A stretch of 64,000 nucleotides of DNA from Escherichia coli. Lineage in GTDB: Bacteria > Pseudomonadota > Gammaproteobacteria > Enterobacterales > Enterobacteriaceae. Of the stretch, positions 49,133 through 61,330 are shown one piece after another. The stretch is taken from the NCBI RefSeq assembly GCF_050920415.1, contig NZ_CP169309.1; one strand, written 5' to 3'. The translations under genes and the position numbers were made by a program. The notes beneath the pieces were generated by a model. The model was not told the DNA's origin and ran no database searches. It saw nothing but the letters and a program-made list of their open reading frames with translations. Numbering within the stretch: the stretch's first letter is position 1; each line of letters opens with the position of its first letter.

Positions 49133-49978
49133 CTATTTCCCCGCCTCCGGATGCGTATCAAACGCCGCCATCACCAACGCCAGTTCATCCACAGTAAAGC
49201 CATGCTTTGCGTCATCTACGCCCAGACCAAACTGCTCCTGCATCACGGCATATAACGACGCCACATCCGCTAGATTCCGCTGCTCCACTGCATGTCCATT
49301 TTCATAATGGGTGAAATGAAAATTGGTCAGTGTCAGTTTGCCACCGTCCGGCAAATGGCGGCACATCAGCAAATGATGGCGAAAATGCGATTGCGGCCAG
49401 TGCGCCGACCAGAAATTCCCCATCACATAATCACTTTGTTGTTGTTCACAGAGATCAAAACGGTACATCGACTGCCAGTGCTGATGATGATTAAACTGCA
49501 AAATCCAGTCGTTCCCTTCCTGTAACAGCCGATATTCGCCATGTGGCGTTGTTTGCGCGATATCCGCCACTAAACGAATCGGCGCAGTCAAAGTCTGCCC
49601 ACCGAAACCGACATCGGCAATCCAGTGTTCGCCTTCCAGCTCCACCAACAACAAACGATGGGTACGCGGCGGTAATGCTGGCGGATTAGATAACACTACG
49701 CGCCCTAACAGACTGCGTACCTGAAAACCCAGCTCGCGTAACACCCGCTCAAACACGCCATTCTGCTCAAAGCAGTAACCACCACGCCGGGCGAGCACCA
49801 ATTTCTCTTCCAGCGATTGATCATCAAGCTGCATTTCTCTCGGCAGCAAAACATCGAGATTTTCAAATGGAATGGTGCAATTGTGTTTCAGGTGTAATGC
49901 GCGCAGCGTTTCGATATTGACCGCAGCCGCTCCCGACCAGTTAATGCGGGTAAAATAGTGATTCAGAATGGGCGTCAT
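49133..49978 (-). CDS. nhoA: Arylamine N-acetyltransferase / N-hydroxyarylamine O-acetyltransferase
   Basis: 281-aa minus-strand ORF with NAT catalytic Cys context (RRGGYCFEQN). Confidence 0.95.
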   Translation of the reverse strand: MTPILNHYFTRINWSGAAAVNIETLRALHLKHNCTIPFENLDVLLPREMQLDDQSLEEKLVLARRGGYCFEQNGVFERVLRELGFQVRSLLGRVVLSNPPALPPRTHRLLLVELEGEHWIADVGFGGQTLTAPIRLVADIAQTTPHGEYRLLQEGNDWILQFNHHQHWQSMYRFDLCEQQQSDYVMGNFWSAHWPQSHFRHHLLMCRHLPDGGKLTLTNFHFTHYENGHAVEQRNLADVASLYAVMQEQFGLGVDDAKHGFTVDELALVMAAFDTHPEAGK

Positions 49979-50152
49979 CAGGCGTTTCCGTTTGTGGTTT
50001 TCTCAATTTATAACCTGGAATAGACGCCGCACCGGCTATTTTGTGCGATCGCGGACATGCATCACGTTCGCAAATCGCCAATCCCGTTAATTTCGTTACT
50101 TATTGCGTTACGAGCTACGCTTTTAAAACACCCTTCTTAGCGAGGCGATACC

Positions 50153-50722
50153 GTGAGCCGATTCATCCCCGTCGAATTACACCATGCCAGCCGTCTGTTA
50201 AACCACGGCCCCACAGTTTTGATAACAACTTTTGATGAAAAATCACAGCGACGTAATGTGATGGCTGCGGCCTGGTCGATGCCGGTGGAGTTTGAACCGC
50301 CACGTGTGGCGATTGTGGTAGATAAATCGACATGGACCAGGGAGTTGATTGAGCGTAACGGTAAATTTGGCATCGTTATCCCGGGCGTTGCGGCGACTAA
50401 CTGGACGTGGGCGGTGGGAAGTGTGTCGGGTCGTGAAGAAGATAAATTTAATTGCTATGGCATTCCGGTTGTGAAAGGTCCGGTGCTTGGATTGCCGCTG
50501 GTTGAAGAGAAATGTCTGGCATGGATGGAGTGTCGATTGCTACCAGCGACTTCTGCGCAAGAAAAATACGATACGCTATTTGGCGAAGTGGTATCGGCAG
50601 CGGCAGACGCACGAGTATTTGTCGAAGGCCGCTGGCAGTTTGATGATGACAAACTCAATACACTACATCATTTAGGTGCTGGCACGTTTGTTACCAGCGG
50701 CAAGCGAGTTGCCGCTGGTTAA
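50153..50722 (+). CDS. yddH: Flavin reductase-like protein
   Basis: 189-aa ORF, divergent from nhoA. Confidence 0.9.
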   Translation: MSRFIPVELHHASRLLNHGPTVLITTFDEKSQRRNVMAAAWSMPVEFEPPRVAIVVDKSTWTRELIERNGKFGIVIPGVAATNWTWAVGSVSGREEDKFNCYGIPVVKGPVLGLPLVEEKCLAWMECRLLPATSAQEKYDTLFGEVVSAAADARVFVEGRWQFDDDKLNTLHHLGAGTFVTSGKRVAAG

Positions 50723-50760
50723 AGAGAGAGCGTTCAGAATTCTGTGTGACGTTAAAAATT

Positions 50761-51156
50761 CTACAGCGTCATCACATTATTCAGCCGCCCTTCAAAATAA
50801 ATAGCTAACTGTGACAATGTCAAATTCCAGCTCTGAACTGGCATTGTCCATTTTTTCTGCGCATTCATCAGTCCCAGGTAAAGTAGCTTCAACAGGCTGT
50901 TTTCATTCGGGAAGGCACCTTTTGTTTTGGTCAGCTTTCTGAACTGCCGGTGAACTGACTCGATAGCATTGGTCGTGTAAATCACCTTACGGATACCCGC
51001 CGGATAACGGAAGTAATGCGACAGATTTTCCCATTTTCGCCGCCACGACTGAAGCACCACCGGATACTGCTGACCCCATTTCGCCTCCAGCTCGTCCAGC
51101 GCTGTTTCTGCCGCCTCCTTCGATACCGCACGGTACACCGGTTTCAGGTCGGCCAT
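50761..51156 (-). pseudogene. IS256-family (Mutator-like) transposase, C-terminal remnant
   Basis: 131-aa ORF matching only the C-terminal region of IS256-family transposases (...YTTNAIESVHRQFRKLTKTKGAFPNE.SLLKLLYL...); N-terminal two-thirds absent. Confidence 0.7.
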
Positions 51157-51170
51157 GAGCCAGGGAAAGA

Positions 51171-52307
51171 TTACGAAAGCCCGCTCCCCGCAAGGACTGA
51201 CGCCAGATACTTTCTGTCCATGGCTGCTTTTCGCATCTTACGTCTTAACCCTGCCTTGAATACCTTATCATTCGTCAAAATATTAATAGCGATGTGCCGT
51301 ATCCCTGAAAATAATTCTGCTGCATTTCCTCTTCTTATTTTGCAGTCGTCTTCATTCATTACCACGTCCAGACGCCAGTGCAGCTTATTCTCCACGTGCC
51401 AGTGATTTCGGATCGCTGTGGCGAACTTCTCTGCGGTTAAATCAGCAGAACTGATATAATATCTGACCGTCATTTCTGGCTCTTTCTTTTGTTCTGCTAT
51501 TATTGACCGAAAGGAGACTGCCACGCATAATTTCTTCAGACCTTTCCATTCAAACGTGAAATCAATAAGTTCATCAGGGACATCGCAAACAATATGAAGA
51601 CGGATTTCTTCTCTGCCGTGACTCTTTTCACTAATTGCGTAACTGTCATGCTCTGGATTATTTAATTCTTTCAGCGGAAATTTTTCCTCGAAGGCTTTAT
51701 TTAGCCGCCCCTGGTTTCCTTTTACAGCGAATAAATAATCACCTCCCTGTTTTTGTATCTTCTCTGCAATATCTTTCTGGCAACCCATCGCATCAGTTGT
51801 GATGATTTTTCCTTTAATATCCAGCATGTTAAGAAGTTCTGGGATAGCTGTAATCTCATTGGATTTCTCATCCGTCTTGATCTGTCCGATGACCAGACTG
51901 TGCATTGTTGAGAACGCACTAATGACATGAATCGCTCCCCTGCGGCGACTCTTGTCATAAGAGTGCCGGAGCGTTTTTCCATCAATTGCAATGACGTCTT
52001 TATCATCTGAAGAATGACATTCACGCATCCGGTTAATAAAGCATTCGTGAAATTTTGCAGGACTGATACATGATACAACTCTGGCAATAGTATCGTGAAC
52101 AGGAATACCATTTTCAAAATCACCATATTGCTTCAAAAAATCGAGATGAGTTTCCCCGAAATCCTCTATATCTTCCCAGCCTTCTGCACCCGAAATAACG
52201 GCGCAAATAGTCAACAGTAGAATATCCGATAATTTATGCTCCACTTTCCAGGCTTGTCTGTAATCGGGGATAATAGAAATATGTTCCATCAATTTTTTAA
52301 GTTCCAT
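51171..52307 (-). CDS. ydcC: ISAs1-family transposase (Rhs H-repeat-associated protein)
   Basis: 378-aa [40 protein letters not shown]..., the characteristic H-rpt ORF of E. coli Rhs elements. Confidence 0.9.
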
Positions 52308-52439
52308 TTTGTTCTCCTTAATTATGTAAGGAGTATTTGATCATGTATAAGCAATAAAAAACAGCTTCAGGTAATGAGGAATATCTCAATTTTTAAACAT
52401 AAAATGCGAATTGTTTAGTACAAAAAAGCAGCGTTAAGT

Positions 52440-54323
52440 GAGTAGGCCACCGGAACCTCCCCGACAGCCTCTCGCAGAACCGTACGTGAAACTCTCGCTT
52501 CATACGGCTCCCGTCAGGCAAACGCGCTTCCTGGTCCTGCTTTCCAGTGGGCAAACAACTCCGGCTTCTCTTTTGACAGTCTTTCCATTAGCTGACACGC
52601 CTTCGTCTTTCTATACCACAGGGTTTTATATTTCTTTCTCGCCCACGCAATCAGCGTCAGATTAATATATCTGCATACTTTCTTCATCGCTGATTTGTGG
52701 TATCTCGCGTAATAATTCAGCCACCCCGATATTATCAGATTCAGCCACTTCGCAATATCTTCGAGACTCATCTCCACCCTGCGTCTGATCCACAGTTTCC
52801 TGAGTTTTCCAATCATGCCTTTCTGCGCACGGTTACTCGCCGCCGGGCTGAAACTCGTAAAGAGGTTTCCCCGCCGGTGGTTACGTGCTCTTCGCGCTCT
52901 GAACGTATACCCCAGAAAATCAAACTGCACTGTTTCATGGTTCGCCTGTCGTTCGCTGTCTTTGCAGTAAACTATTTTCGTTTTCTCCGGATGTAATTCC
53001 AGTCCACATTCCTGAAAACGTTTTGCCAGCTTATTCAGTAATTCCTCTGCCTGTTGTTTACTGCCACAATGAATTAATCCATCATCTGCATAACGGCACC
53101 AGGGAATTTCCGGATAATGTAACGTCAGCCATTTATCAAACACATAGTGCAGAAATAAATTCGCCAGTACCGGGCTGATGACTCCACCCTGTGGCGTACC
53201 TTTATTTCTTTCCTTCAGTGTTCCATCCGGCATCTGCACCGGCGCTGTCAGCCAGCGGCGAATAGACAGTCTTACCCATTTATCCGCACAATGTTTATCT
53301 ACTGCCCTGAGTAATAAATCGTGGGGGATATTATCGAATAACCCTTTAATATCAAACTCAAGACACCAGTCGTATTGCCAGCAACGTTTTCTGGTGACTG
53401 CTATTGCATCCAGCGCTGATTTTCCATGCCGGTATCCGTATGAATCATTCAGGAAATAACGCTCCACTAATGGTTCAAACGTTACCAGCACCGTCATCTG
53501 CGCTATTCTATCGCTTACTGTCGGTATTCCTAAAAGTCTTTTGCTGCCATCCTTCTTCGGAATTTCCACCGCACGCACTGGCGGCGGCATCCAGCTTCCC
53601 GACGATAACCTGTTCCAGATTTTGTACAGATTTCCTTTCAGATCCCGCTCAAAATCTTTCAGCGTCTGGTTATCCACTCCGGCAGCTCCGGCATTCGCCT
53701 TTATCCGCCGGTACGCTTCCACCACATGCAATTTACTGACCTGAAACGGTTTTGTCTGTTCACACACAGTCTCCTCCTGCCTACAGTTGGGCTGTGATGC
53801 AGACTGCCCGACGCTGTCCCTTCGCTCCACGTTCATTACAAACGCTTCCTCACTACTACGAACAGCTCTGCCCCGGTTTCGCACATCGATACTCTCATAC
53901 TCATAATTTCGGTTATTTGTAATTCTCTCTTGACATTGCGACGACCGGTTCCCGTAGTTCCTGCAAAGAGCCCGATACAGCGTCATGCCTGCTATACACC
54001 GGACATCATTCACGCAGCATTCGGAATTCACCCGTAAATTAATCCCGGCGGTATCACGAAACCTCCGGTTTTGATGTCACTTAGGACTAACGACGTTTCA
54101 ACACAGGTTCGGGTTTACTCATCTCACTGTATCTCACATAGGATCAGATCTCGTCTGATCGTTCCCCCTGCGCTCACTACCATGGCTCTTTACCACAGCA
54201 GCCGGGGTTGTTTGGGACCGACTTCCGACAGCAGATCCCGGTGGGCCTGCCACCATCTCTTCACAAGCTTATGCTTATTACATGCAAAACGTCCCGTTTT
54301 GCATCTTTGTGCCTACGGCACAC
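52440..54323 (-). mobile_element. Group II intron (boundaries approximate)
   Basis: On the minus strand: 5' GUGUG-type start near 54323, internal RT/maturase ORF, and a canonical domain V hairpin GAGCCGTATGAAGCGAGAGTTTCACGTACGGTTC (plus coordinates 52477..52510) followed by a domain VI-like helix. Confidence 0.8.
52514..54031 (-). CDS. Group II intron-encoded reverse transcriptase/maturase
   Basis: 505 aa with RT motifs including YADD (RYADDGLIHC) and a C-terminal maturase (domain X) region; stop codon abuts domain V. Confidence 0.9.
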   Translation of the reverse strand: MNSECCVNDVRCIAGMTLYRALCRNYGNRSSQCQERITNNRNYEYESIDVRNRGRAVRSSEEAFVMNVERRDSVGQSASQPNCRQEETVCEQTKPFQVSKLHVVEAYRRIKANAGAAGVDNQTLKDFERDLKGNLYKIWNRLSSGSWMPPPVRAVEIPKKDGSKRLLGIPTVSDRIAQMTVLVTFEPLVERYFLNDSYGYRHGKSALDAIAVTRKRCWQYDWCLEFDIKGLFDNIPHDLLLRAVDKHCADKWVRLSIRRWLTAPVQMPDGTLKERNKGTPQGGVISPVLANLFLHYVFDKWLTLHYPEIPWCRYADDGLIHCGSKQQAEELLNKLAKRFQECGLELHPEKTKIVYCKDSERQANHETVQFDFLGYTFRARRARNHRRGNLFTSFSPAASNRAQKGMIGKLRKLWIRRRVEMSLEDIAKWLNLIISGWLNYYARYHKSAMKKVCRYINLTLIAWARKKYKTLWYRKTKACQLMERLSKEKPELFAHWKAGPGSAFA

Positions 54324-54398
54324 CGTGATCTTTCCCTGGGAATAAAAGAAAGTTCACTGTAGTTATTAATGATATTTACTTCTTCATTCATATTTTAC

Positions 54399-54788
54399 CT
54401 ATTTAGAAAAACATATGCTCGCTTCCTCCGTGATAGAGATAACATAATCAGGTATTATTTCAAATACAGGAGTAATTAAGTATGGTCTGGAGTAACCATT
54501 ATTAAAATCCACACTATCAACTAAAAAACTAATAATGCTATCTTTGTCAGAAACAATCAATGATTCTCGGTAATAAGTTTTTTTACCTTTATTTCTCACA
54601 ATATTCAGTGCAATGTAGAATCTATCGTCTATCATAATGTCAGAAAGATTTTTAACATGATCTACCCAAGTGATGCTTCGACATTGCTCTTTTTTATTGA
54701 GCATTGCAAAAAAAATATCTTCTTTCACTTTCTCACTTGGTAACTGACTTAAAGGTTTTATACCTGTAAATATAAATTTAGTTTTCAT
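54399..54788 (-). CDS. Hypothetical protein (AT-rich accessory ORF D)
   Basis: 129-aa ORF, no recognisable family from sequence alone; 72 bp upstream of the intron 5' end. Confidence 0.5.
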   Translation of the reverse strand: MKTKFIFTGIKPLSQLPSEKVKEDIFFAMLNKKEQCRSITWVDHVKNLSDIMIDDRFYIALNIVRNKGKKTYYRESLIVSDKDSIISFLVDSVDFNNGYSRPYLITPVFEIIPDYVISITEEASICFSK

Positions 54789-54818
54789 ATTGGCTAATTC
54801 GTTTGAAGAGTTGCTACT

Positions 54819-55241
54819 TTATTCAATCCAGTAAGCTAGTCGCTCTCCAGAACTTAGATTTTCCCTTTTGTAATAAAATACCGTATCGAAATTAAGTGAA
54901 ATGTTTGCCGCTATAACTTTAAACTGTAATATTGACTCGGAATAAAACTCGAGAATAATATTAGCATCATTATCATCGTTAATTATTTTTAGTTTCATAA
55001 AATCATCAAGAGGATCACAAGTCCAGTGCGTATCACCACTCATGTAAGATGGTGCATTTATTATTATTTCAAAATTATGATAGTACGAAAGATCACTACT
55101 GCCAACGATAATTAATCGCCCATTACTATAGAGATAAATTTCAAAATCTATCCAACAGTTATTTCTGTAATTACGCCTAATTTCGTCCACTACATTTTGT
55201 TGTTTCATTTTGGATTCTTGTAAAAGATAATTACTACGCAT
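54819..55241 (-). CDS. Hypothetical protein (accessory ORF C)
   Basis: 140-aa acidic ORF, low GC, no TM segments. Confidence 0.5.
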   Translation of the reverse strand: MRSNYLLQESKMKQQNVVDEIRRNYRNNCWIDFEIYLYSNGRLIIVGSSDLSYYHNFEIIINAPSYMSGDTHWTCDPLDDFMKLKIINDDNDANIILEFYSESILQFKVIAANISLNFDTVFYYKRENLSSGERLAYWIE

Positions 55242-55285
55242 TGACTAAGTGAAATATTATCTTCTATAGATCGTATCTGTAAAAT

Positions 55286-55618
55286 TTAAAATGTGTTAAC
55301 TTCACTTCTTAATAATACAAATTCCTCCAGGCTTAATATTTTATTTTTTAATTCATCATGCCTGATCGTATCATTGATATAGAGAAGATAAGTATACTCA
55401 GGATAATCGACCTCATCCACTACGCCATCCAAAACATCATAATTTTCTTTTAGAAGAAAATGTTCATGTCTTTTGTCTCCGGGCAATAAATAGATTCCGC
55501 CATAATAAAGGCTTTCTTTCTCTTTAAATGTGATTTTTATCAGATCTTCTAACATCTTCTGCGCATCATATATTTCCACCCCATAATATCCATACAAGTC
55601 ATAATAACCCATTCCCAT
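55286..55618 (-). CDS. Hypothetical protein (accessory ORF B)
   Basis: 110-aa ORF with ATG start preceded by AGGTGA RBS. Confidence 0.55.
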   Translation of the reverse strand: MGMGYYDLYGYYGVEIYDAQKMLEDLIKITFKEKESLYYGGIYLLPGDKRHEHFLLKENYDVLDGVVDEVDYPEYTYLLYINDTIRHDELKNKILSLEEFVLLRSEVNTF

Positions 55619-55639
55619 TTCACCTGTTTGAATTTGTAT

Positions 55640-55840
55640 TCATTCACCCTCACGGGATTTACCAATTACATTCAGCAGTGGCATTAAATGTAATGTTACA
55701 AAACTATCACATCTTTCCTGAATTATCATTTGGATATAATGTTTTGTGTCATTGCTACCATATTCAGCCATATAGAATATTACTGCGTCCATTATATCTC
55801 TTTCATAGTTTTCTAATGCATCAACAAATACATCAACCAA
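55640..55840 (-). CDS. Hypothetical small ORF (accessory ORF A), possibly a remnant
   Basis: 66-aa frame with only a TTG start and no clear RBS; the frame is closed by stops just upstream; in the same frame as ORF B, separated by one TGA. Confidence 0.3.
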   Translation of the reverse strand: MVDVFVDALENYERDIMDAVIFYMAEYGSNDTKHYIQMIIQERCDSFVTLHLMPLLNVIGKSREGE

Positions 55841-56050
55841 AGTATTAACGTCTTTACTTGATGGATGCTCTGAAAGATTATTTTCATTTGTGAGAATCTG
55901 AATCGTACCATTACGATTCTCTTAGAAATATCATTAAATACGCTACCGCCCTACCCTGATAGACTGGCCCCCTGAATCTCCAGACAACCAGTATCACTTA
56001 AATAAGTGATAGTCTTAATACTAGTTTTTAGACTAGTCATTGGAGAACAG

Positions 56051-56416
56051 ATGATTGATGTCTTAGGGCCGGAGAAACGCAGACGGCGTACCACACAGGA
56101 AAAGATCGCAATTGTTCAGCAGAGCTTTGAACCGGGGATGACGGTCTCCCTCGTTGCCCGGCAACATGGTGTAGCAGCCAGCCAGTTATTTCTCTGGCGT
56201 AAGCAATACCAGGAAGGAAGTCTTACTGCTGTCGCCGCCGGAGAACAGGTTGTTCCTGCCTCTGAACTTGCTGCCGCCATGAAGCAGATTAAAGAACTCC
56301 AGCGCCTGCTCGGCAAGAAAACGATGGAAAATGAACTCCTCAAAGAAGCCGTTGAATATGGACGGGCAAAAAAGTGGATAGCGCACGCGCCCTTATTGCC
56401 CGGGGATGGGGAGTAA
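56051..56416 (+). CDS. insC: IS2 transposase OrfA
   Basis: 121-aa product [47 protein letters not shown]... Confidence 0.95.
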
Positions 56417-57279
56417 GCTTAGTCAGCCGTTGTCTCCGGGTGTCGCGTGCGCAGTTGCACGTCATTCTCAGACGAACCGATGACTGGATGGATGGCCGCC
56501 GCAGTCGTCACACTGATGATACGGATGTGCTTCTCCGTATACACCATGTTATCGGAGAGCTGCCCACGTATGGTTATCGTCGGGTATGGGCGCTGCTTCG
56601 CAGACAGGCAGAACTTGATGGTATGCCTGCGATCAATGCCAAACGTGTTTACCGGATCATGCGCCAGAATGCGCTGTTGCTTGAGCGAAAACCTGCTGTA
56701 CCGCCATCGAAACGGGCACATACAGGCAGAGTGGCCGTGAAAGAAAGCAATCAGCGATGGTGCTCTGACGGGTTCGAGTTCTGCTGTGATAACGGAGAGA
56801 GACTGCGTGTCACGTTCGCGCTGGACTGCTGTGATCGTGAGGCACTGCACTGGGCGGTGACTACTGGCGGCTTCAACAGTGAAACAGTACAGGACGTCAT
56901 GCTGGGAGCGGTGGAACGCCGCTTCGGCAACGATCTTCCGTCGTCTCCAGTGGAGTGGCTGACGGATAATGGTTCATGCTACCGGGCTAATGAAACACGC
57001 CAGTTCGCCCGGATGTTGGGACTTGAACCGAAGAACACGGCGGTGCGGAGTCCGGAGAGTAACGGAATAGCAGAGAGCTTCGTGAAAACGATAAAGCGTG
57101 ACTACATCAGTATCATGCCCAAACCAGACGGGTTAACGGCAGCAAAGAACCTTGCAGAGGCGTTCGAGCATTATAACGAATGGCATCCGCATAGTGCGCT
57201 GGGTTATCGCTCGCCACGGGAATATCTGCGGCAGCGGGCTTGTAATGGGTTAAGTGATAACAGATGTCTGGAAATATAG
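56374..57279 (+). CDS. insD: IS2 transposase OrfB (DDE integrase domain)
   Basis: 301-aa ORF overlapping insC in the -1 frame, typical IS3-family arrangement. Confidence 0.95.
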
Positions 57280-57513
57280 GGGCAAATCCACCTGATAACA
57301 TGATCTGCACTGCGTTATCATATCGACATGTTTCTCTATATGCGAAGAGATGTTTTATTTTCGGATTAAATTAAATTGATATTCAATATAAAATACAGAA
57401 TCACATCAGCGACATAAATAGTTGTAACAACTTCAATTACCATTCATAGCAAACAAATAGACGTCCAGTTAACTTTGCCGATGATTTATTAACATTAATC
57501 TCCGGCATTGTTG

Positions 57514-58131
57514 TTAAATAATGGCATTCCTTTTTAGTACTTCTTGTAACTTTGGTATCTGACATACAGCATCAGCAATCGCACTGATATTCGTGGCATT
57601 ATCCTGAAACCATTCATGCCCAGGCCCCCATGTGCGCATTGTGCAAAGATAACAGTCCACCAGCGTGAGTTGCTCTCCAAACACATACGGTTCAGCAGTC
57701 AATTGTGAATTCAGCCAGATATAAAGCGATTTGCGATATTCAATAACATTCTTCTTCAACTGTTCAGGTGCGTCGGGGACCCAACGTTCAGGGTAATCGG
57801 CGAAGGTAAACGTTGGATAGACATTAGCGACCAGCCAGACCAATAGCCGTTGAAACTGCTGACGTTCGGCACGCCCAACTGGTGGCGCAAGATCCGGGCT
57901 GCGGTCGAGCACCATTAGCGCAATAGCCGCGCTTTCGGTCATAATCTCGCCATTTTCCAGCGCCAGTGTCGGAACCTGACATAGCGGATTGAGCTTTTGC
58001 AATAGCTCACGCGCAATACCTTCACTGTCAAAACCGCTGACATCAACAAACTTATAGGGAATATCTGCCAGCGTAAGCATGAGTTCGCTGATTGTAGAAC
58101 CCCATCCCGGCACGCCATACATCTTTAACAT
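57514..58131 (-). CDS. yncG: Glutathione S-transferase homolog
   Basis: 205-aa minus-strand ORF; divergent from ansP. Confidence 0.85.
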   Translation of the reverse strand: MLKMYGVPGWGSTISELMLTLADIPYKFVDVSGFDSEGIARELLQKLNPLCQVPTLALENGEIMTESAAIALMVLDRSPDLAPPVGRAERQQFQRLLVWLVANVYPTFTFADYPERWVPDAPEQLKKNVIEYRKSLYIWLNSQLTAEPYVFGEQLTLVDCYLCTMRTWGPGHEWFQDNATNISAIADAVCQIPKLQEVLKRNAII

Positions 58132-58413
58132 AGCGCCTCCAAAACGCCTAAAAGCTTAAGTGTAGAACACCCATTTCACACGGCGTTGAGGGGCCAGAAG
58201 CGCCTTTCTGACTCTTTTATAACCACACACCTGAATTACCCCCCTAATTTATATGGTTATTTTTTGCATCGTTTCCCGAATGAAGGTAGGATTCTGCGCC
58301 GACAGACATATACCCATAAAGAATAACGGTTAGCGCTGTCATAGTTACCGTGAATAAAGAATGTATTTGTGGTAACGAGAAACGTTAATTCATGAAGATC
58401 ATCAGGGAGCGCA

Positions 58414-59913
58414 ATGAGATCACATAACAACGACGTAACTGATCAACACGCCGCGAAACGCCGCTGGCTTAATGCCCACGAAGAGGGGTATCACAAAGCG
58501 ATGGGCAATCGCCAGGTACAGATGATCGCCATTGGCGGCGCGATTGGCACCGGCTTGTTTTTAGGTGCAGGAGCCCGACTGCAAATGGCGGGGCCAGCAC
58601 TGGCACTGGTCTATTTAATCTGCGGCCTGTTTTCATTTTTTATTCTGCGTGCATTGGGTGAGCTGGTGCTACACCGCCCTTCCAGTGGCAGTTTTGTCTC
58701 TTATGCCCGTGAGTTTTTAGGAGAGAAAGCCGCTTACGTTGCAGGCTGGATGTACTTCATCAACTGGGCGATGACGGGGATTGTCGATATTACCGCCGTC
58801 GCTCTGTATATGCATTACTGGGGTGCGTTTGGCGGCGTGCCGCAGTGGGTCTTTGCGCTCGCTGCGCTGACCATCGTTGGCACCATGAATATGATTGGTG
58901 TGAAATGGTTTGCGGAGATGGAGTTCTGGTTTGCGCTTATTAAAGTGCTCGCCATCGTGACCTTTTTGGTCGTGGGTACAGTGTTCCTCGGTAGCGGTCA
59001 GCCGCTGGATGGCAACACCACTGGCTTTCATTTAATTACCGATAATGGCGGCTTCTTCCCCCACGGTTTACTGCCTGCGCTGGTATTGATTCAGGGCGTA
59101 GTGTTTGCTTTTGCCTCTATTGAAATGGTTGGAACAGCTGCCGGAGAATGTAAAGATCCGCAGACCATGGTGCCTAAAGCCATTAACAGTGTGATTTGGC
59201 GTATTGGCCTGTTTTACGTCGGCTCCGTGGTGTTGCTGGTTATGTTATTACCGTGGAGCGCGTATCAGGCGGGGCAAAGTCCGTTCGTGACGTTTTTCTC
59301 TAAACTGGGCGTGCCTTACATCGGCAGCATTATGAACATTGTGGTACTGACTGCTGCCCTCTCCAGCCTGAACTCAGGTCTGTACTGCACCGGGCGTATT
59401 CTGCGCTCAATGGCGATGGGCGGCTCTGCACCAAGTTTCATGGCGAAAATGAGTCGTCAGCATGTGCCGTATGCCGGGATCCTGGCGACGCTGGTCGTTT
59501 ATGTTGTTGGCGTATTCCTTAACTATCTGGTGCCGTCGCGCGTATTTGAGATTGTGTTGAACTTCGCGTCGCTGGGAATCATCGCTTCATGGGCGTTTAT
59601 CATCGTGTGCCAGATGCGCCTGCGTAAAGCGATTAAAGAAGGCAAAGCAGCGGATGTCAGTTTTAAACTCCCAGGTGCGCCCTTTACGTCGTGGCTGACA
59701 TTACTGTTTTTACTGAGCGTCCTGGTGCTGATGGCGTTCGATTACCCGAACGGGACTTATACCATCGCTGCGCTGCCGATTATTGGCCTTCTGCTGGTTG
59801 TAGGTTGGTTTGGTGTGCGCAAACGCGTTGCAGAAATACACAGCACTGCGCCAGTCGTCGAGGAAGATGAAGAAAAACAGGAAATTGTGTTTAAGCCTGA
59901 AACGGCGAGCTAA
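58414..59913 (+). CDS. ansP: L-asparagine permease (APC family)
   Basis: 499-aa 12-TM amino acid permease. Confidence 0.95.
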   Translation: MRSHNNDVTDQHAAKRRWLNAHEEGYHKAMGNRQVQMIAIGGAIGTGLFLGAGARLQMAGPALALVYLICGLFSFFILRALGELVLHRPSSGSFVSYAREFLGEKAAYVAGWMYFINWAMTGIVDITAVALYMHYWGAFGGVPQWVFALAALTIVGTMNMIGVKWFAEMEFWFALIKVLAIVTFLVVGTVFLGSGQPLDGNTTGFHLITDNGGFFPHGLLPALVLIQGVVFAFASIEMVGTAAGECKDPQTMVPKAINSVIWRIGLFYVGSVVLLVMLLPWSAYQAGQSPFVTFFSKLGVPYIGSIMNIVVLTAALSSLNSGLYCTGRILRSMAMGGSAPSFMAKMSRQHVPYAGILATLVVYVVGVFLNYLVPSRVFEIVLNFASLGIIASWAFIIVCQMRLRKAIKEGKAADVSFKLPGAPFTSWLTLLFLLSVLVLMAFDYPNGTYTIAALPIIGLLLVVGWFGVRKRVAEIHSTAPVVEEDEEKQEIVFKPETAS

Positions 59914-59921
59914 TTGCAAAA

Positions 59922-59944
59922 TTGCCCGGCTACGTGCCGGGCAA
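59922..59944. terminator. Bidirectional hairpin terminator between ansP and yncE
   Basis: TTGCCCGGC-TACGT-GCCGGGCAA flanked by A-run and T-rich sequence. Confidence 0.65.
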
Positions 59945-60027
59945 ATTTAGATTACTGACGAAGGTGTGCCGCATGCGGCGTGATAAAAGTCAGGCAAGTC
60001 TCTCCGTTTTCACCCTCGCCATATCTA

Positions 60028-61089
60028 TTACAGCGCAATACGAATCACATCGTCTGGCTGGGTAGCTTCCTGCTGTTTAGTGGATTTTTGTTTCACACTG
60101 ACATACAGCGTTTTGCCATCGGCAGACAGCGCCAGGCTGTTTGGATGAGTCGGCGTATCGAACGTTTTCACCACTTTATAGCTTTTCGCGTCAATCACAC
60201 TGACTTTACCTGCCTGACGATGCGTTACGTAGGCTTCATTACGCGCTGGGTTAAACAGCACAGCCAGTGATTCCGGTGCCGCAACCTTCGCCAGAATATT
60301 GCCATTACGGGTATCGACCACTAGCACTTCTGCCGCTTTAGAATCGGTGATAAATGCACGCTGCCTGGCGGTATCGAGGCTGATGTTGATAAAGAAGTGC
60401 TCTTTGCCATCATCCAGCAGCTTTTTACGGCTGAGGATTTTATTGTCGGCGGTGTCGATGGTAATCAATTCACCATCGGCATTAGTGGTGTAAAGACGTT
60501 TGCCTTTGCTATCCAGCGCCAGACCGGTACTCATTTTACCGGTGTTCTGGATGGCGGTTTTCAGTTTGATATTCTCGCCATCAACGACCCAAATCACGCT
60601 CTCTTTACCAATACCACTGATGTAAACGGTGTTCGTGGCATCATCAGCTACCAGCTCACGCGGTTGCAGCGGGCGCACCTCTTCCGTGCGCTTACGATCA
60701 TCCAGCACCAGACGGCCTTTCACTTCGCCCGTTTTGGCATCTATCGCCGTGACCGCGCTGTTTACGGTGTTACCAAACCACAACGTCTGAGTCGTGTTAT
60801 TGATGGTGGCACCAAACGGCTTGAGATCGTTATGGATCGCCTGAGTTACCTCCAGAGTGACCGGATCGAGACGATAAACCACCCCGCCTTTATCCAGTTT
60901 GCGGCTTTGTGAAGTAGCGAGCCACAGCGCGTTTTCCTGCTGGCTATAAGCCATTTCGTAGGCACCTTTACCTACCGCTTTACGCAGCATTTCTTCTGCG
61001 GCCTGCGTACTGAATGATGAAGCAATAAGCAATGAACCTAACAGTAATGAACCACGCAGGCGCGATGAAAACAGATGACGTAAATGCAT
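60028..61089 (-). CDS. yncE: Periplasmic seven-bladed beta-propeller protein
   Basis: 353 aa with signal peptide; synteny ansP-yncE-yncD. Confidence 0.9.
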   Translation of the reverse strand: MHLRHLFSSRLRGSLLLGSLLIASSFSTQAAEEMLRKAVGKGAYEMAYSQQENALWLATSQSRKLDKGGVVYRLDPVTLEVTQAIHNDLKPFGATINNTTQTLWFGNTVNSAVTAIDAKTGEVKGRLVLDDRKRTEEVRPLQPRELVADDATNTVYISGIGKESVIWVVDGENIKLKTAIQNTGKMSTGLALDSKGKRLYTTNADGELITIDTADNKILSRKKLLDDGKEHFFINISLDTARQRAFITDSKAAEVLVVDTRNGNILAKVAAPESLAVLFNPARNEAYVTHRQAGKVSVIDAKSYKVVKTFDTPTHPNSLALSADGKTLYVSVKQKSTKQQEATQPDDVIRIAL

Positions 61090-61330
61090 GACGACTCCCT
61101 TTGATGAACCGATATTTTTGCTGCTTCACAATGCTTCGCTAAGCGTAATCATCGTTACGCTCTTGTTATAAATGGGAATGGTAATCATTATTTTCTCAAA
61201 TGTGGAGCATTTCTTGCCGTTACGACTACAATTTTCTCAATTACTTAACGTATTGTGCCGTTTCATTTTCCATAAATTTACAATTTCATTACCATGACGG
61301 CGTTTTCCCATTCTTAACCTGGCTTTTTTC

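Follow-up and report, generated by a model that had tools for sequence, protein, structure and literature searches.

Among described systems, the locus examined here comes closest to two occupants of the interval between yncG and yddH, namely the E. coli K-12 element RhsE and, in O157:H7 Sakai, the vgrE-Rhs island. In K-12 this interval contains rhsE', ydcD, yncI and ydcC, in agreement with an earlier note on this DNA that had named RhsE as the occupant of the corresponding K-12 position. More broadly, the same site in WL297, FCI56, MB06233, Sakai and K-12 carries VgrG/Rhs, whole or as a remnant, with immunity genes, followed by an ISEc1 element that contains a group II intron (ISEc1::intron). 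The intron has been described as E.c.I9, which is reported to home into the "Rhs IS (=ISEc1-5)"; a full-length copy is present in E. coli ATCC 8739, and 193-nt fragments are found in Sakai, EDL933, IAI1, SE11 and E24377A (PMC3522654). A second point of comparison is the orphan immunity array of Pectobacterium parmentieri (L014/L015), in which several small genes of low GC content lie on one strand with no local cognate toxin. The kind of locus that we describe is already known, as is every mobile element in it, and arrays of orphan immunity genes have been amply documented. We consider it likely that the segment analyzed here represents the hypervariable vgrE/RhsE T6SS effector island, which occupies the yncG-yddH interval in Escherichia, in a form that has immunity genes but no effectors.

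Organization of the yddH-yncG segment

The window, a 64-kb stretch of E. coli DNA from contig NZ_CP169309.1, contains an accessory segment that runs from 50726 to 57513 between yddH and yncG. The earlier note had the place right but drew the bounds too narrowly, at 50761-57295. At the yddH flank, homology with all compared strains stops at 50722-50725. At the other flank, yncG is only 87% identical to the K-12 allele, with a dS of 0.60. The features are as follows.

50153..50722, plus strand: yddH, core flank
50726..51159, minus strand: IS256-family stub, comprising the outer end and the last 131 transposase codons (ORF 50761-51156)
51160..52436, minus strand: larger part of ISEc1 (H-repeat, ISAs1 family), with the right inverted repeat CCAGGGAAAGATTACG at 51160, ending at the intron 3' splice site
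51171-52307, minus strand: ydcC, intact ISAs1 transposase, 378 aa
52437..54323, minus strand: group II intron E.c.I9, 1887 nt, within ISEc1 and 15 nt inside its left inverted repeat
52514-53836, minus strand: intact intron RT/maturase, 440 aa
54324..54339, minus strand: ISEc1 left inverted repeat, CAGGGAAAGATCACG, which is the intron 5' exon; element end at 54338 ±1
54399-54788, minus strand: o129, 129 aa, putative orphan immunity-type gene
54819-55241, minus strand: o140, 129 aa from the ATG at 55208, putative orphan immunity gene of a family paired with Rhs-Ntox30
55286-55618, minus strand: o110, probable orphan immunity gene
55640-55840, minus strand: o66, a 90-aa ORF shortened here at its N-terminus
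55960-57290 (55955..57295 with repeats), plus strand: IS2, 1331 bp, in a spacer 119 bp upstream of o66
57296..57513, no strand: AT-rich spacer of the small-ORF haplotype, 31% GC, running to the yncG stop codon
57514..58131, minus strand: yncG, flank gene, strongly divergent allele

The yddH-proximal 3.6 kb consist of the IS256-family stub, ISEc1 and E.c.I9, and the yncG-proximal 1.6 kb are a unidirectional array of small AT-rich genes with a GC content of 30.8%, compared to 48% for the window. Each element that had been listed from the letters alone (the IS256 remnant, the ISAs1 transposase, the intron, the four ORFs and IS2) lies at or close to where it had been placed.

Known mobile elements, with IS2 as a recent arrival

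Of the 338 positions in the NCBIfam model for IS256 transposases, the stub ORF at 50761-51156 on the minus strand covers 235-337 (E 5e-32), and the DNA from 50726 to 51158 is ~88% similar to IS1414-like elements. It shares the outer end and transposase C-terminus with IS1414 and other E. coli members of the family, but only the last third of the transposase is present here; the N-terminal two thirds are gone, cut by the right end of ISEc1. The reading as a transposase remnant therefore holds, the element being incomplete. A variant at least 99% identical occurs in only two complete genomes, and the stub is annotated as "missing N-terminus" in MFDS1022581 and N96. It stands where K-12 has pptA. 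Within the IS1414-like stub, no overlapping short ORF resembles the EAST1 peptide encoded by astA (compared by eye), and this candidate was rejected.

Next to the stub, ydcC spans the whole ISAs1 model (410 bits), as expected of the intact H-repeat transposase that had been claimed. Without the intron, ISEc1 measures 1291 bp (51161-52436 plus 54324-54338), with inverted repeats CAGGGAAAGATYACG on both ends, and it is 97% identical to the K-12 copy. We found no target-site duplication, the flanks being ggccatgag and aataaaagaa, as would be expected following an adjacent deletion or recombination. The junctions between ISEc1 and o129 are of three kinds: that of the window, one in E. fergusonii with 33 additional bp, and one in ERR273803 with ~730 additional bp, past a fifth ORF. 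Such variation is expected from IS-adjacent deletions or ISEc1-ISEc1 recombination.

E.c.I9 is complete. Its exact ends, 54323 (GTGTG) and 52437, are set by the intron-less sites in L011, N96 and E. fergusonii, which read CAGGGAAAGATCACG^TAACGCTGC. Rfam models (RF01999, RF00029) match domains D1-D4 at 54137-54254 (93 bits) and D5/D6 at 52437-52512 (63 bits), and the RT/maturase matches TIGR04416 over the full model (425 bits). The copy has the ribozyme domains, 5' GUGYG, RT/maturase in domain IV and empty cognate sites expected of a mobile group II intron. A candidate EBS1, CGTGAT, at intron position 266 is suggestive only, since a given 6-mer would occur in 520 nt by chance about 12% of the time. 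We named the intron through the 193-nt Sakai fragment (E.c.I9-tr1) named in the published survey (PMC3522654), which matches 54131-54341 at 98.6%. The host element and the location "in a Rhs region" are also those published; unlike the Sakai-type fragments, the window copy is complete and its RT is intact. The earlier note was correct that a group II intron with an intact RT is present, but it is not a separate insertion, as it is nested in ISEc1 at the published homing site. The intron/ISEc1 junction is found in 86 of 5,426 genomes.

IS2, a member of the IS3 family, is likewise complete, with 5-bp direct repeats (CCTGA) at 55955-55959 and 57291-57295 and with orfA (276 bits) and orfB (728 bits) both above the IS2-specific NCBIfam cut-offs. 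In its length, ORFs and target duplication it is like the known element, and nothing about it is unusual. The site is empty in MFDS1022581, whose genome is otherwise 99.99% identical, in accord with the claim of a complete IS2 with a target duplication. Judged by this comparison, IS2 is a very recent arrival in an intergenic spacer, a strain-specific new copy and the latest event at the locus.

A block of small, probable immunity genes

All four small AT-rich ORFs that had been noted are present, with a GC content of 31%, but the fourth, o66, lacks the N-terminus of its 90-aa orthologue. None of the four has a significant match in NCBIfam, PADLOC, PHROGs or Pfam; the best hit of all these scans was a non-significant one of o66 to Imm30 (E 0.27). 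They are also unrelated to ydcD. The dN/dS values are 0.14 for o140, 0.22 for o110 and 0.52 for o66, and the three intact ORFs span 0.14-0.22, indicating that o129, o140 and o110 are real genes under purifying selection rather than filler. The fourth is probably decaying; o66 has no informative relatives, its 90-aa form has no plasmid match, and a toxin-adjacent homologue was seen for each of the other three only.

In the case of o140, homologues ~50% identical overlap the ends of Rhs-Ntox30 genes by 4 bp in Lonsdalea and Citrobacter sedlakii, and another lies in the Pectobacterium immunity array, which is rich in Imm45, SUKH, CdiI and Imm26 genes. The protein keeps every invariant residue of the family, and the family alignment gave no match to PDB sequences. 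The family is likely the immunity partner of the Ntox30 toxin domain. In three contigs, relatives of o129 directly follow a conserved toxin tip of Rhs; this tip belongs to no Pfam family, and the predicted structure of o129 matches a CdiI structure, pointing to a CdiI-like fold. Some relatives of o129 are solitary, near flagellar genes or an integrase. For o110, homologues 35-37% identical (E 1e-10 to 1e-12) occur in Rhizobium, where one lies behind a CdiA-like hemagglutinin at a distance of 230 bp rather than abutting it, and in P. aeruginosa, within an array of toxin fragments and immunity genes. An AlphaFold model of o110 made without an alignment was unusable (pLDDT 35). We regard o110 as a probable orphan immunity gene.

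Taken together, at least three of the four small ORFs appear to be leftover immunity genes, a function that we infer from sequence. The proteins would act as orphan immunity factors, binding and neutralizing toxins injected by neighboring bacteria. No cognate toxin gene lies beside them in the 64-kb window; as only these 64 kb of the genome were covered, a cognate toxin could be encoded elsewhere, and "orphan" would then be the wrong word for them. The block resembles the P. parmentieri array in its architecture and in the presence of the o140 family in both. Unlike that array, it has four genes, one of them decaying, and contains neither toxin-tip fragments nor SymE-like genes; unlike orphan immunity arrays in general, it has no member in a named Imm family.

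Absence of effector genes

The earlier note had seen no Rhs core or toxin tip, and our searches bear this out. With seven Rhs, VgrG and immunity queries, including the K-12, WL297 and FCI56 Rhs fragments, tblastn returned nothing below E=0.17, and the PxxxxDPxGL motif is absent from all six frames of 50700-57520. A six-frame search of the window for remnants of Rhs, VgrG, yncH, pptA and ydcD found none. Variable toxin tips from Lonsdalea and C. sedlakii (Ntox30) and from WL297 had no match in the window, and no leftover Ntox30 coding sequence was found upstream of o140 in the window or the related islands. Of the parts of an Rhs element, the locus has the small AT-rich immunity ORFs and the distal H-repeat but neither the core ORF nor the tip. 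It shares with K-12 and Sakai the chromosomal interval, a distal ISEc1/H-repeat that is 96-97% identical, and the order in which small AT-rich immunity-type ORFs precede the H-repeat. Unlike them, it has no Rhs core, tip, VgrG, yncH or pptA, its small ORFs are not related to ydcD, and its flank alleles are very divergent, as the dS of yncG shows.

Origin of the segment

The small-ORF block is accessory, as had been proposed, and not conserved core sequence, since it is found in 12 of 5,426 complete E. coli genomes; E. fergusonii has it as well. In every case the block adjoins the yncG flank. Compared with K-12, WL297 and FCI56, the block and this flank show similarity in yncG alone (86-88%). 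On its yncG side the segment shares 97% identity with ERR273803 and E. fergusonii; on its yddH side it shares 100% with N96, where this haplotype terminates a PAAR-VgrG effector module. Judged from these alignments, the segment combines two haplotypes by recombination and is not a decayed K-12-type RhsE.

We propose that a yncG side of the E. fergusonii/ERR273803 type and a yddH side of the N96 type were joined, with the junction at the left end of ISEc1. ISEc1, the intron and the stub correspond to what usually forms the distal end of the island where it carries Rhs. In this history, an IS256-family element would have replaced pptA, the ISEc1-homing E.c.I9 would have invaded the left inverted repeat of ISEc1, and IS2 would have landed last, in the spacer that lies upstream of o66. 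A handful of genomes served to reconstruct this sequence of events (recombination versus deletion).

The main alternative, close to what the earlier note had suggested, is that a K-12-like RhsE decayed in place as insertions and deletions by the IS256-family element, ISEc1, the intron and IS2 removed its core and tip, with its downstream ORFs and the H-repeat remaining. The chromosomal site is indeed the RhsE site and the small ORFs are of the immunity type, so that the note had recognized the kind of locus, and ISEc1 copies truncate Rhs here in MB06233 and E. fergusonii, where this is seen directly. Any erosion was not the work of the elements now visible, however, so the route that the note proposed is not supported: the spacer that received IS2 is intact, a near-identical genome lacks this IS2, and the intron homed into ISEc1 and deleted nothing. 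Furthermore, yncH and all traces of Rhs and VgrG are gone, and the block and its flank are unlike the K-12, WL297 and FCI56 versions outside yncG. The view that the small ORFs are the downstream part of an Rhs element is likewise not supported. In E. fergusonii, a remnant of an Rhs tip is found past the block, toward yddH, a position that does not show the block to have lain downstream of that Rhs, and islands of the GF4-3 type hold three of the ORFs, continuous with the yncG flank, with no mobile element and no Rhs. We consider decay in place unlikely.

Far less probable still is that the ORFs are an unrelated islet beside ISEc1, either a phage-defense or stress cassette or AT-rich filler: the lack of database matches, the solitary relatives of o129 and the GF4-3-type islands, in which the ORFs occur beside unrelated genes, among them one for a GNAT acetyltransferase (GNAT being the only Pfam domain among the extra genes of the GF4-3 and ERR273803 islands), would fit this, but relatives of three ORFs independently take the place of an immunity gene, each behind a different polymorphic toxin, and also lie inside arrays rich in named immunity genes, the o129 model matches CdiI, and the dN/dS values speak against filler.

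Implications

The two-haplotype recombinant that we favor would be a well-resolved case of turnover in the RhsE/vgrE T6SS effector island, in which effector modules are gained or lost whole and the immunity genes and the ISEc1::intron unit stay. It also gives a probable role to three unannotated families of small proteins, which may be of use in annotation and in studies of interbacterial competition; no concept is changed. More tentatively, the block might be a selectively maintained "acquired defense" cassette. Its three unnamed immunity families, one cognate to Rhs-Ntox30, one to an unclassified ~110-aa Rhs tip (the family with the CdiI-like fold) and one linked to CdiA-type toxins, would shield strains that lack the corresponding weapons. 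Recombination in the divergent yncG and yddH flanks could carry such a cassette between E. coli and E. fergusonii, with ISEc1 serving to swap or delete effector modules.

Organization of the island

The mobile elements and small ORFs that an earlier note listed between yddH and yncG (IS256-family stub, H-repeat, group II intron, four AT-rich ORFs and IS2) are all present in the sequence.

Features of the accessory island (50726-57513) and its flanking genes
50153-50722, +: yddH, flank gene at one end of the interval
50726-51159: IS256-family stub, with an ORF at 50761-51156 (-)
51160: right inverted repeat of ISEc1 (the H-repeat, ISAs1 family), CCAGGGAAAGATTACG
51171-52307: ydcC, ISEc1 transposase, 378 aa, intact
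54323 down to 52437, -: group II intron, 1887 nt
54324-54339: ISEc1 left inverted repeat, the element's last 15-16 nt
54399-54788, -: o129
54819-55241, -: o140
55286-55618, -: o110
55640-55840, -: o66
55960-57290: IS2, with CCTGA repeats on both sides
218 bp running up to yncG: AT-rich spacer
57514-58131, -: yncG, flank gene at the other end

GC content falls from ~50% in the flanks to 29-35% across 54400-56000, and the small-ORF block has 30.8% GC compared with 48.1% for the whole window. The note's observation that the Rhs core is absent also stands: no Rhs, VgrG, yncH, pptA or ydcD sequence is detectable in the window.

All of the mobile elements are known ones: IS2, ISEc1, the intron E.c.I9 and a relative of IS1414. 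The IS256-stub ORF matches the 338-position IS256 transposase model from position 235 to 337 only. Its DNA is ~88% identical to IS1414-like copies, and just two complete genomes have this variant at 99% identity or more. IS2 was acquired very recently. Strain MFDS1022581 differs from the window by 1 mismatch in 8,862 bp over the whole region, yet lacks IS2 and retains the empty target (...ccctaccCTGAtaacatg...). IS2 is inserted 119 bp upstream of o66, in a non-coding stretch, and no gene is interrupted.

The intron is nested within ISEc1. Intron-less copies of the ISEc1 left end read CAGGGAAAGATCACG^TAACGCTGC in the Logan assembly ERR273803 and in E. fergusonii, and with minor differences in N96; the exons bordering the intron in the window match this site exactly, and the ISEc1 parts without the intron sum to 1291 bp. 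Additionally, CGTGAT at intron position 266 could base-pair with the six bases at the end of the exon, which is suggestive only. The intron has Rfam matches to D1-D4 and D5/D6 and encodes an intact RT/maturase of 440 aa. A mechanical call of the RT ORF (52514-54031) reaches a GTG and gives 505 aa, while the annotated, model-supported 440-aa protein starts at 53836. [quoted passage not shown] Because the Sakai fragment sits at this very locus and is 98.6% identical to window positions 54131-54341, the window intron is E.c.I9. The intron/ISEc1 junction is found in 86 of 5,426 complete E. coli genomes.

A type VI effector island in other genomes

Gene content at this locus in comparison strains, read from yncG to yddH
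K-12: yncG-yncH-rhsE'-ydcD-yncI-ydcC-pptA-yddH
Sakai: full VgrE, full Rhs, E.c.I9 fragment, partial ISEc1, pptA
WL297: VgrG', DUF6531, Rhs', immunity gene, then ISEc1::intron
FCI56 and MB06233: Rhs fragments with immunity genes, then intron::ISEc1'
N96: PAAR, full VgrG, M35 metallopeptidase and 273-aa ORF, between a solo ISEc1 left-end fragment and ISEc1::E.c.I9

Because these genomes carry VgrG, Rhs and PAAR effector genes here, the site is the vgrE/RhsE type VI effector island, and the note had recognized the RhsE locus correctly. ISEc1 with its intron forms the common distal end of this island. The window shares only 51160-54339 with these six strains, plus the IS256 stub in the case of N96. 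In MB06233, an ISEc1 has replaced the N-terminal part of Rhs. The N96 module (L007 13507-17885), with a split metallopeptidase gene and a 150-bp solo ISEc1 fragment, resembles a composite transposon around a T6SS effector module.

A 211-220-aa ORF adjoins yddH in several islands (L002 4015-4650, L004 7356-8018, L008 8015-8650) and is called an "aminopeptidase" in one annotation. It occurs both in Rhs-free islands of the GF4-3 type and in the Rhs-bearing islands of WL297 and 2017-02-2CC, so island pieces have been mixed in several ways. Strain 2017-02-2CC also has a DUF4303 gene between narI and yddE (L008 3718-4908), and its island holds a second ISEc1, a HepT-like fragment and an extra 605-bp E.c.I9 fragment.

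Three of the small ORFs resemble immunity genes

None of the four small ORFs is recognized by any curated library. In Lonsdalea quercina and Citrobacter sedlakii, homologues of o140 (~50% identity) have a 4-bp overlap with the stop of Rhs-Ntox30 (PF15532) genes, and another lies in a Pectobacterium array crowded with Imm45, SUKH, CdiI and Imm26 genes; none of the 19 invariant residues is altered in the window copy. An Ntox30 Rhs C-terminal domain consistently precedes a 129-aa family (L012 2-2583, L016 1-909) that has no Pfam or NCBIfam model and is a candidate cognate immunity family of Ntox30.

For o129 we found 33 distant relatives, one of which (contig L020) starts 3 bp after a 1093-aa Rhs that has VgrG and DUF4123 genes alongside. 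The same ~110-aa toxin tip lies directly upstream of relatives in L021 and the metagenome contig L022 (L020 2717-6381, L022 3-712; 74% identity between these two). This tip, with the consensus ...KFQVKV...GNMNR.KAHTQS.RADGV.KYPKGYEQH...TPHIK.YNNGTDGHIFY.IPN, has no Pfam match. The AlphaFold model of o129, built from 26 sequences, has a pLDDT of 92. Among the homologues of o110 (35-37% identity), one on a Rhizobium plasmid is the first annotated gene behind a gene for a giant, CdiA-like hemagglutinin, and another belongs to an array in P. aeruginosa that combines toxin fragments with immunity genes.

The dN/dS ratios of o140 (0.14), o110 (0.22) and o129 (0.18) indicate that these are maintained genes. 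The ratio for o66 is 0.52; it lacks the first ~24 codons of its 90-aa orthologue, has stop codons upstream and looks like a decaying gene. The note's link between the small ORFs and Rhs systems is borne out by context for o140, o129 and o110, but not for o66.

Two haplotypes, probably joined at ISEc1

The small-ORF block (54340-55959) occurs in only 12 of the 5,426 complete genomes. Besides MFDS1022581, these are eleven genomes of the GF4-3 and PT62 type with only o140, o110 and o66 (~93% identity), in the order yncG, three ORFs, 186-aa ORF, 220-aa ORF, GNAT gene, yddH; their islands are free of mobile elements and of Rhs. An o129 homologue (70% identity) also lies in this interval on L009, a more distant Escherichia-like contig, with no IS. 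ERR273803 carries all four ORFs at 98.9% identity, then a fifth ORF and ISEc1 sequence. This 159-aa ORF (L011 8545-9024, after o129) is deleted in the window; its only match, to HEAT repeats, is weak and non-significant (E 0.62).

In E. fergusonii, o110', o140 and o129 (~97.7% identity) precede an ISEc1 that lacks the intron; beyond it come the final 17 codons of a Rhs tip of the WL297 type, the tip's immunity gene and two more ISEc1. The three ISEc1 lie in series downstream of o129 (L023 9945-14118), with the tip remnant and the intact 132-aa immunity gene between the first two. This arrangement is direct evidence for ISEc1-linked Rhs truncation. The junction between ISEc1 and the small-ORF array differs among three genomes: in the window ISEc1 starts immediately behind ...tttcttttattcc, in E. 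fergusonii 33 bp farther on and in ERR273803 ~730 bp farther on, as expected from IS-adjacent deletions or recombination among ISEc1 copies.

From narI to yddH, and through the IS256 stub and ISEc1::intron, the window is 98-100% identical to N96. In contrast, for yncG and the spacer the identity is 96-97% with ERR273803 and E. fergusonii and only 87-89% with N96, K-12, WL297 and GF4-3. Judged by these identities, the window is a hybrid of two haplotypes. Compared with K-12, dS is 0.60 for yncG (87% identity) and 0.44 for yddH, an extreme divergence for E. coli flanks, which points to old haplotypes, possibly inter-species ones, that have hitch-hiked along with the island. The divergent flanks are 57514-58413 and 49133-50722; nhoA is 89% identical, and only 38% of the yncG-ansP intergenic region aligns to K-12, at 74% identity. 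The 6.7 kb at 57291-64000 (yncG spacer, ansP, yncE, into pqqU) are 96.6-96.8% identical to E. fergusonii contigs L023 and L024. Other E. coli are about equally close over this stretch, a hint of exchange between the two species here.

The earlier proposal of a resident Rhs eroded by the four visible mobile elements is not borne out by these comparisons: IS2 is new and intergenic, the intron merely invaded ISEc1, and the immunity block is part of a separate rare haplotype, in some genomes without any Rhs or IS. We propose instead an immunity-only island state, with an ISEc1 as the point where it would have been joined to the distal end of a haplotype that bears effectors. A protective role of the small ORFs and their expression are presumed, as is the order of events. 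Neither the locus, which is the classical RhsE/vgrE site, nor the existence of orphan immunity arrays is new. What is modestly new is a set of three immunity-type families lacking annotation, one of them likely to be the partner of Ntox30, together with clean comparative snapshots of ISEc1-linked turnover at the vgrE/RhsE island.
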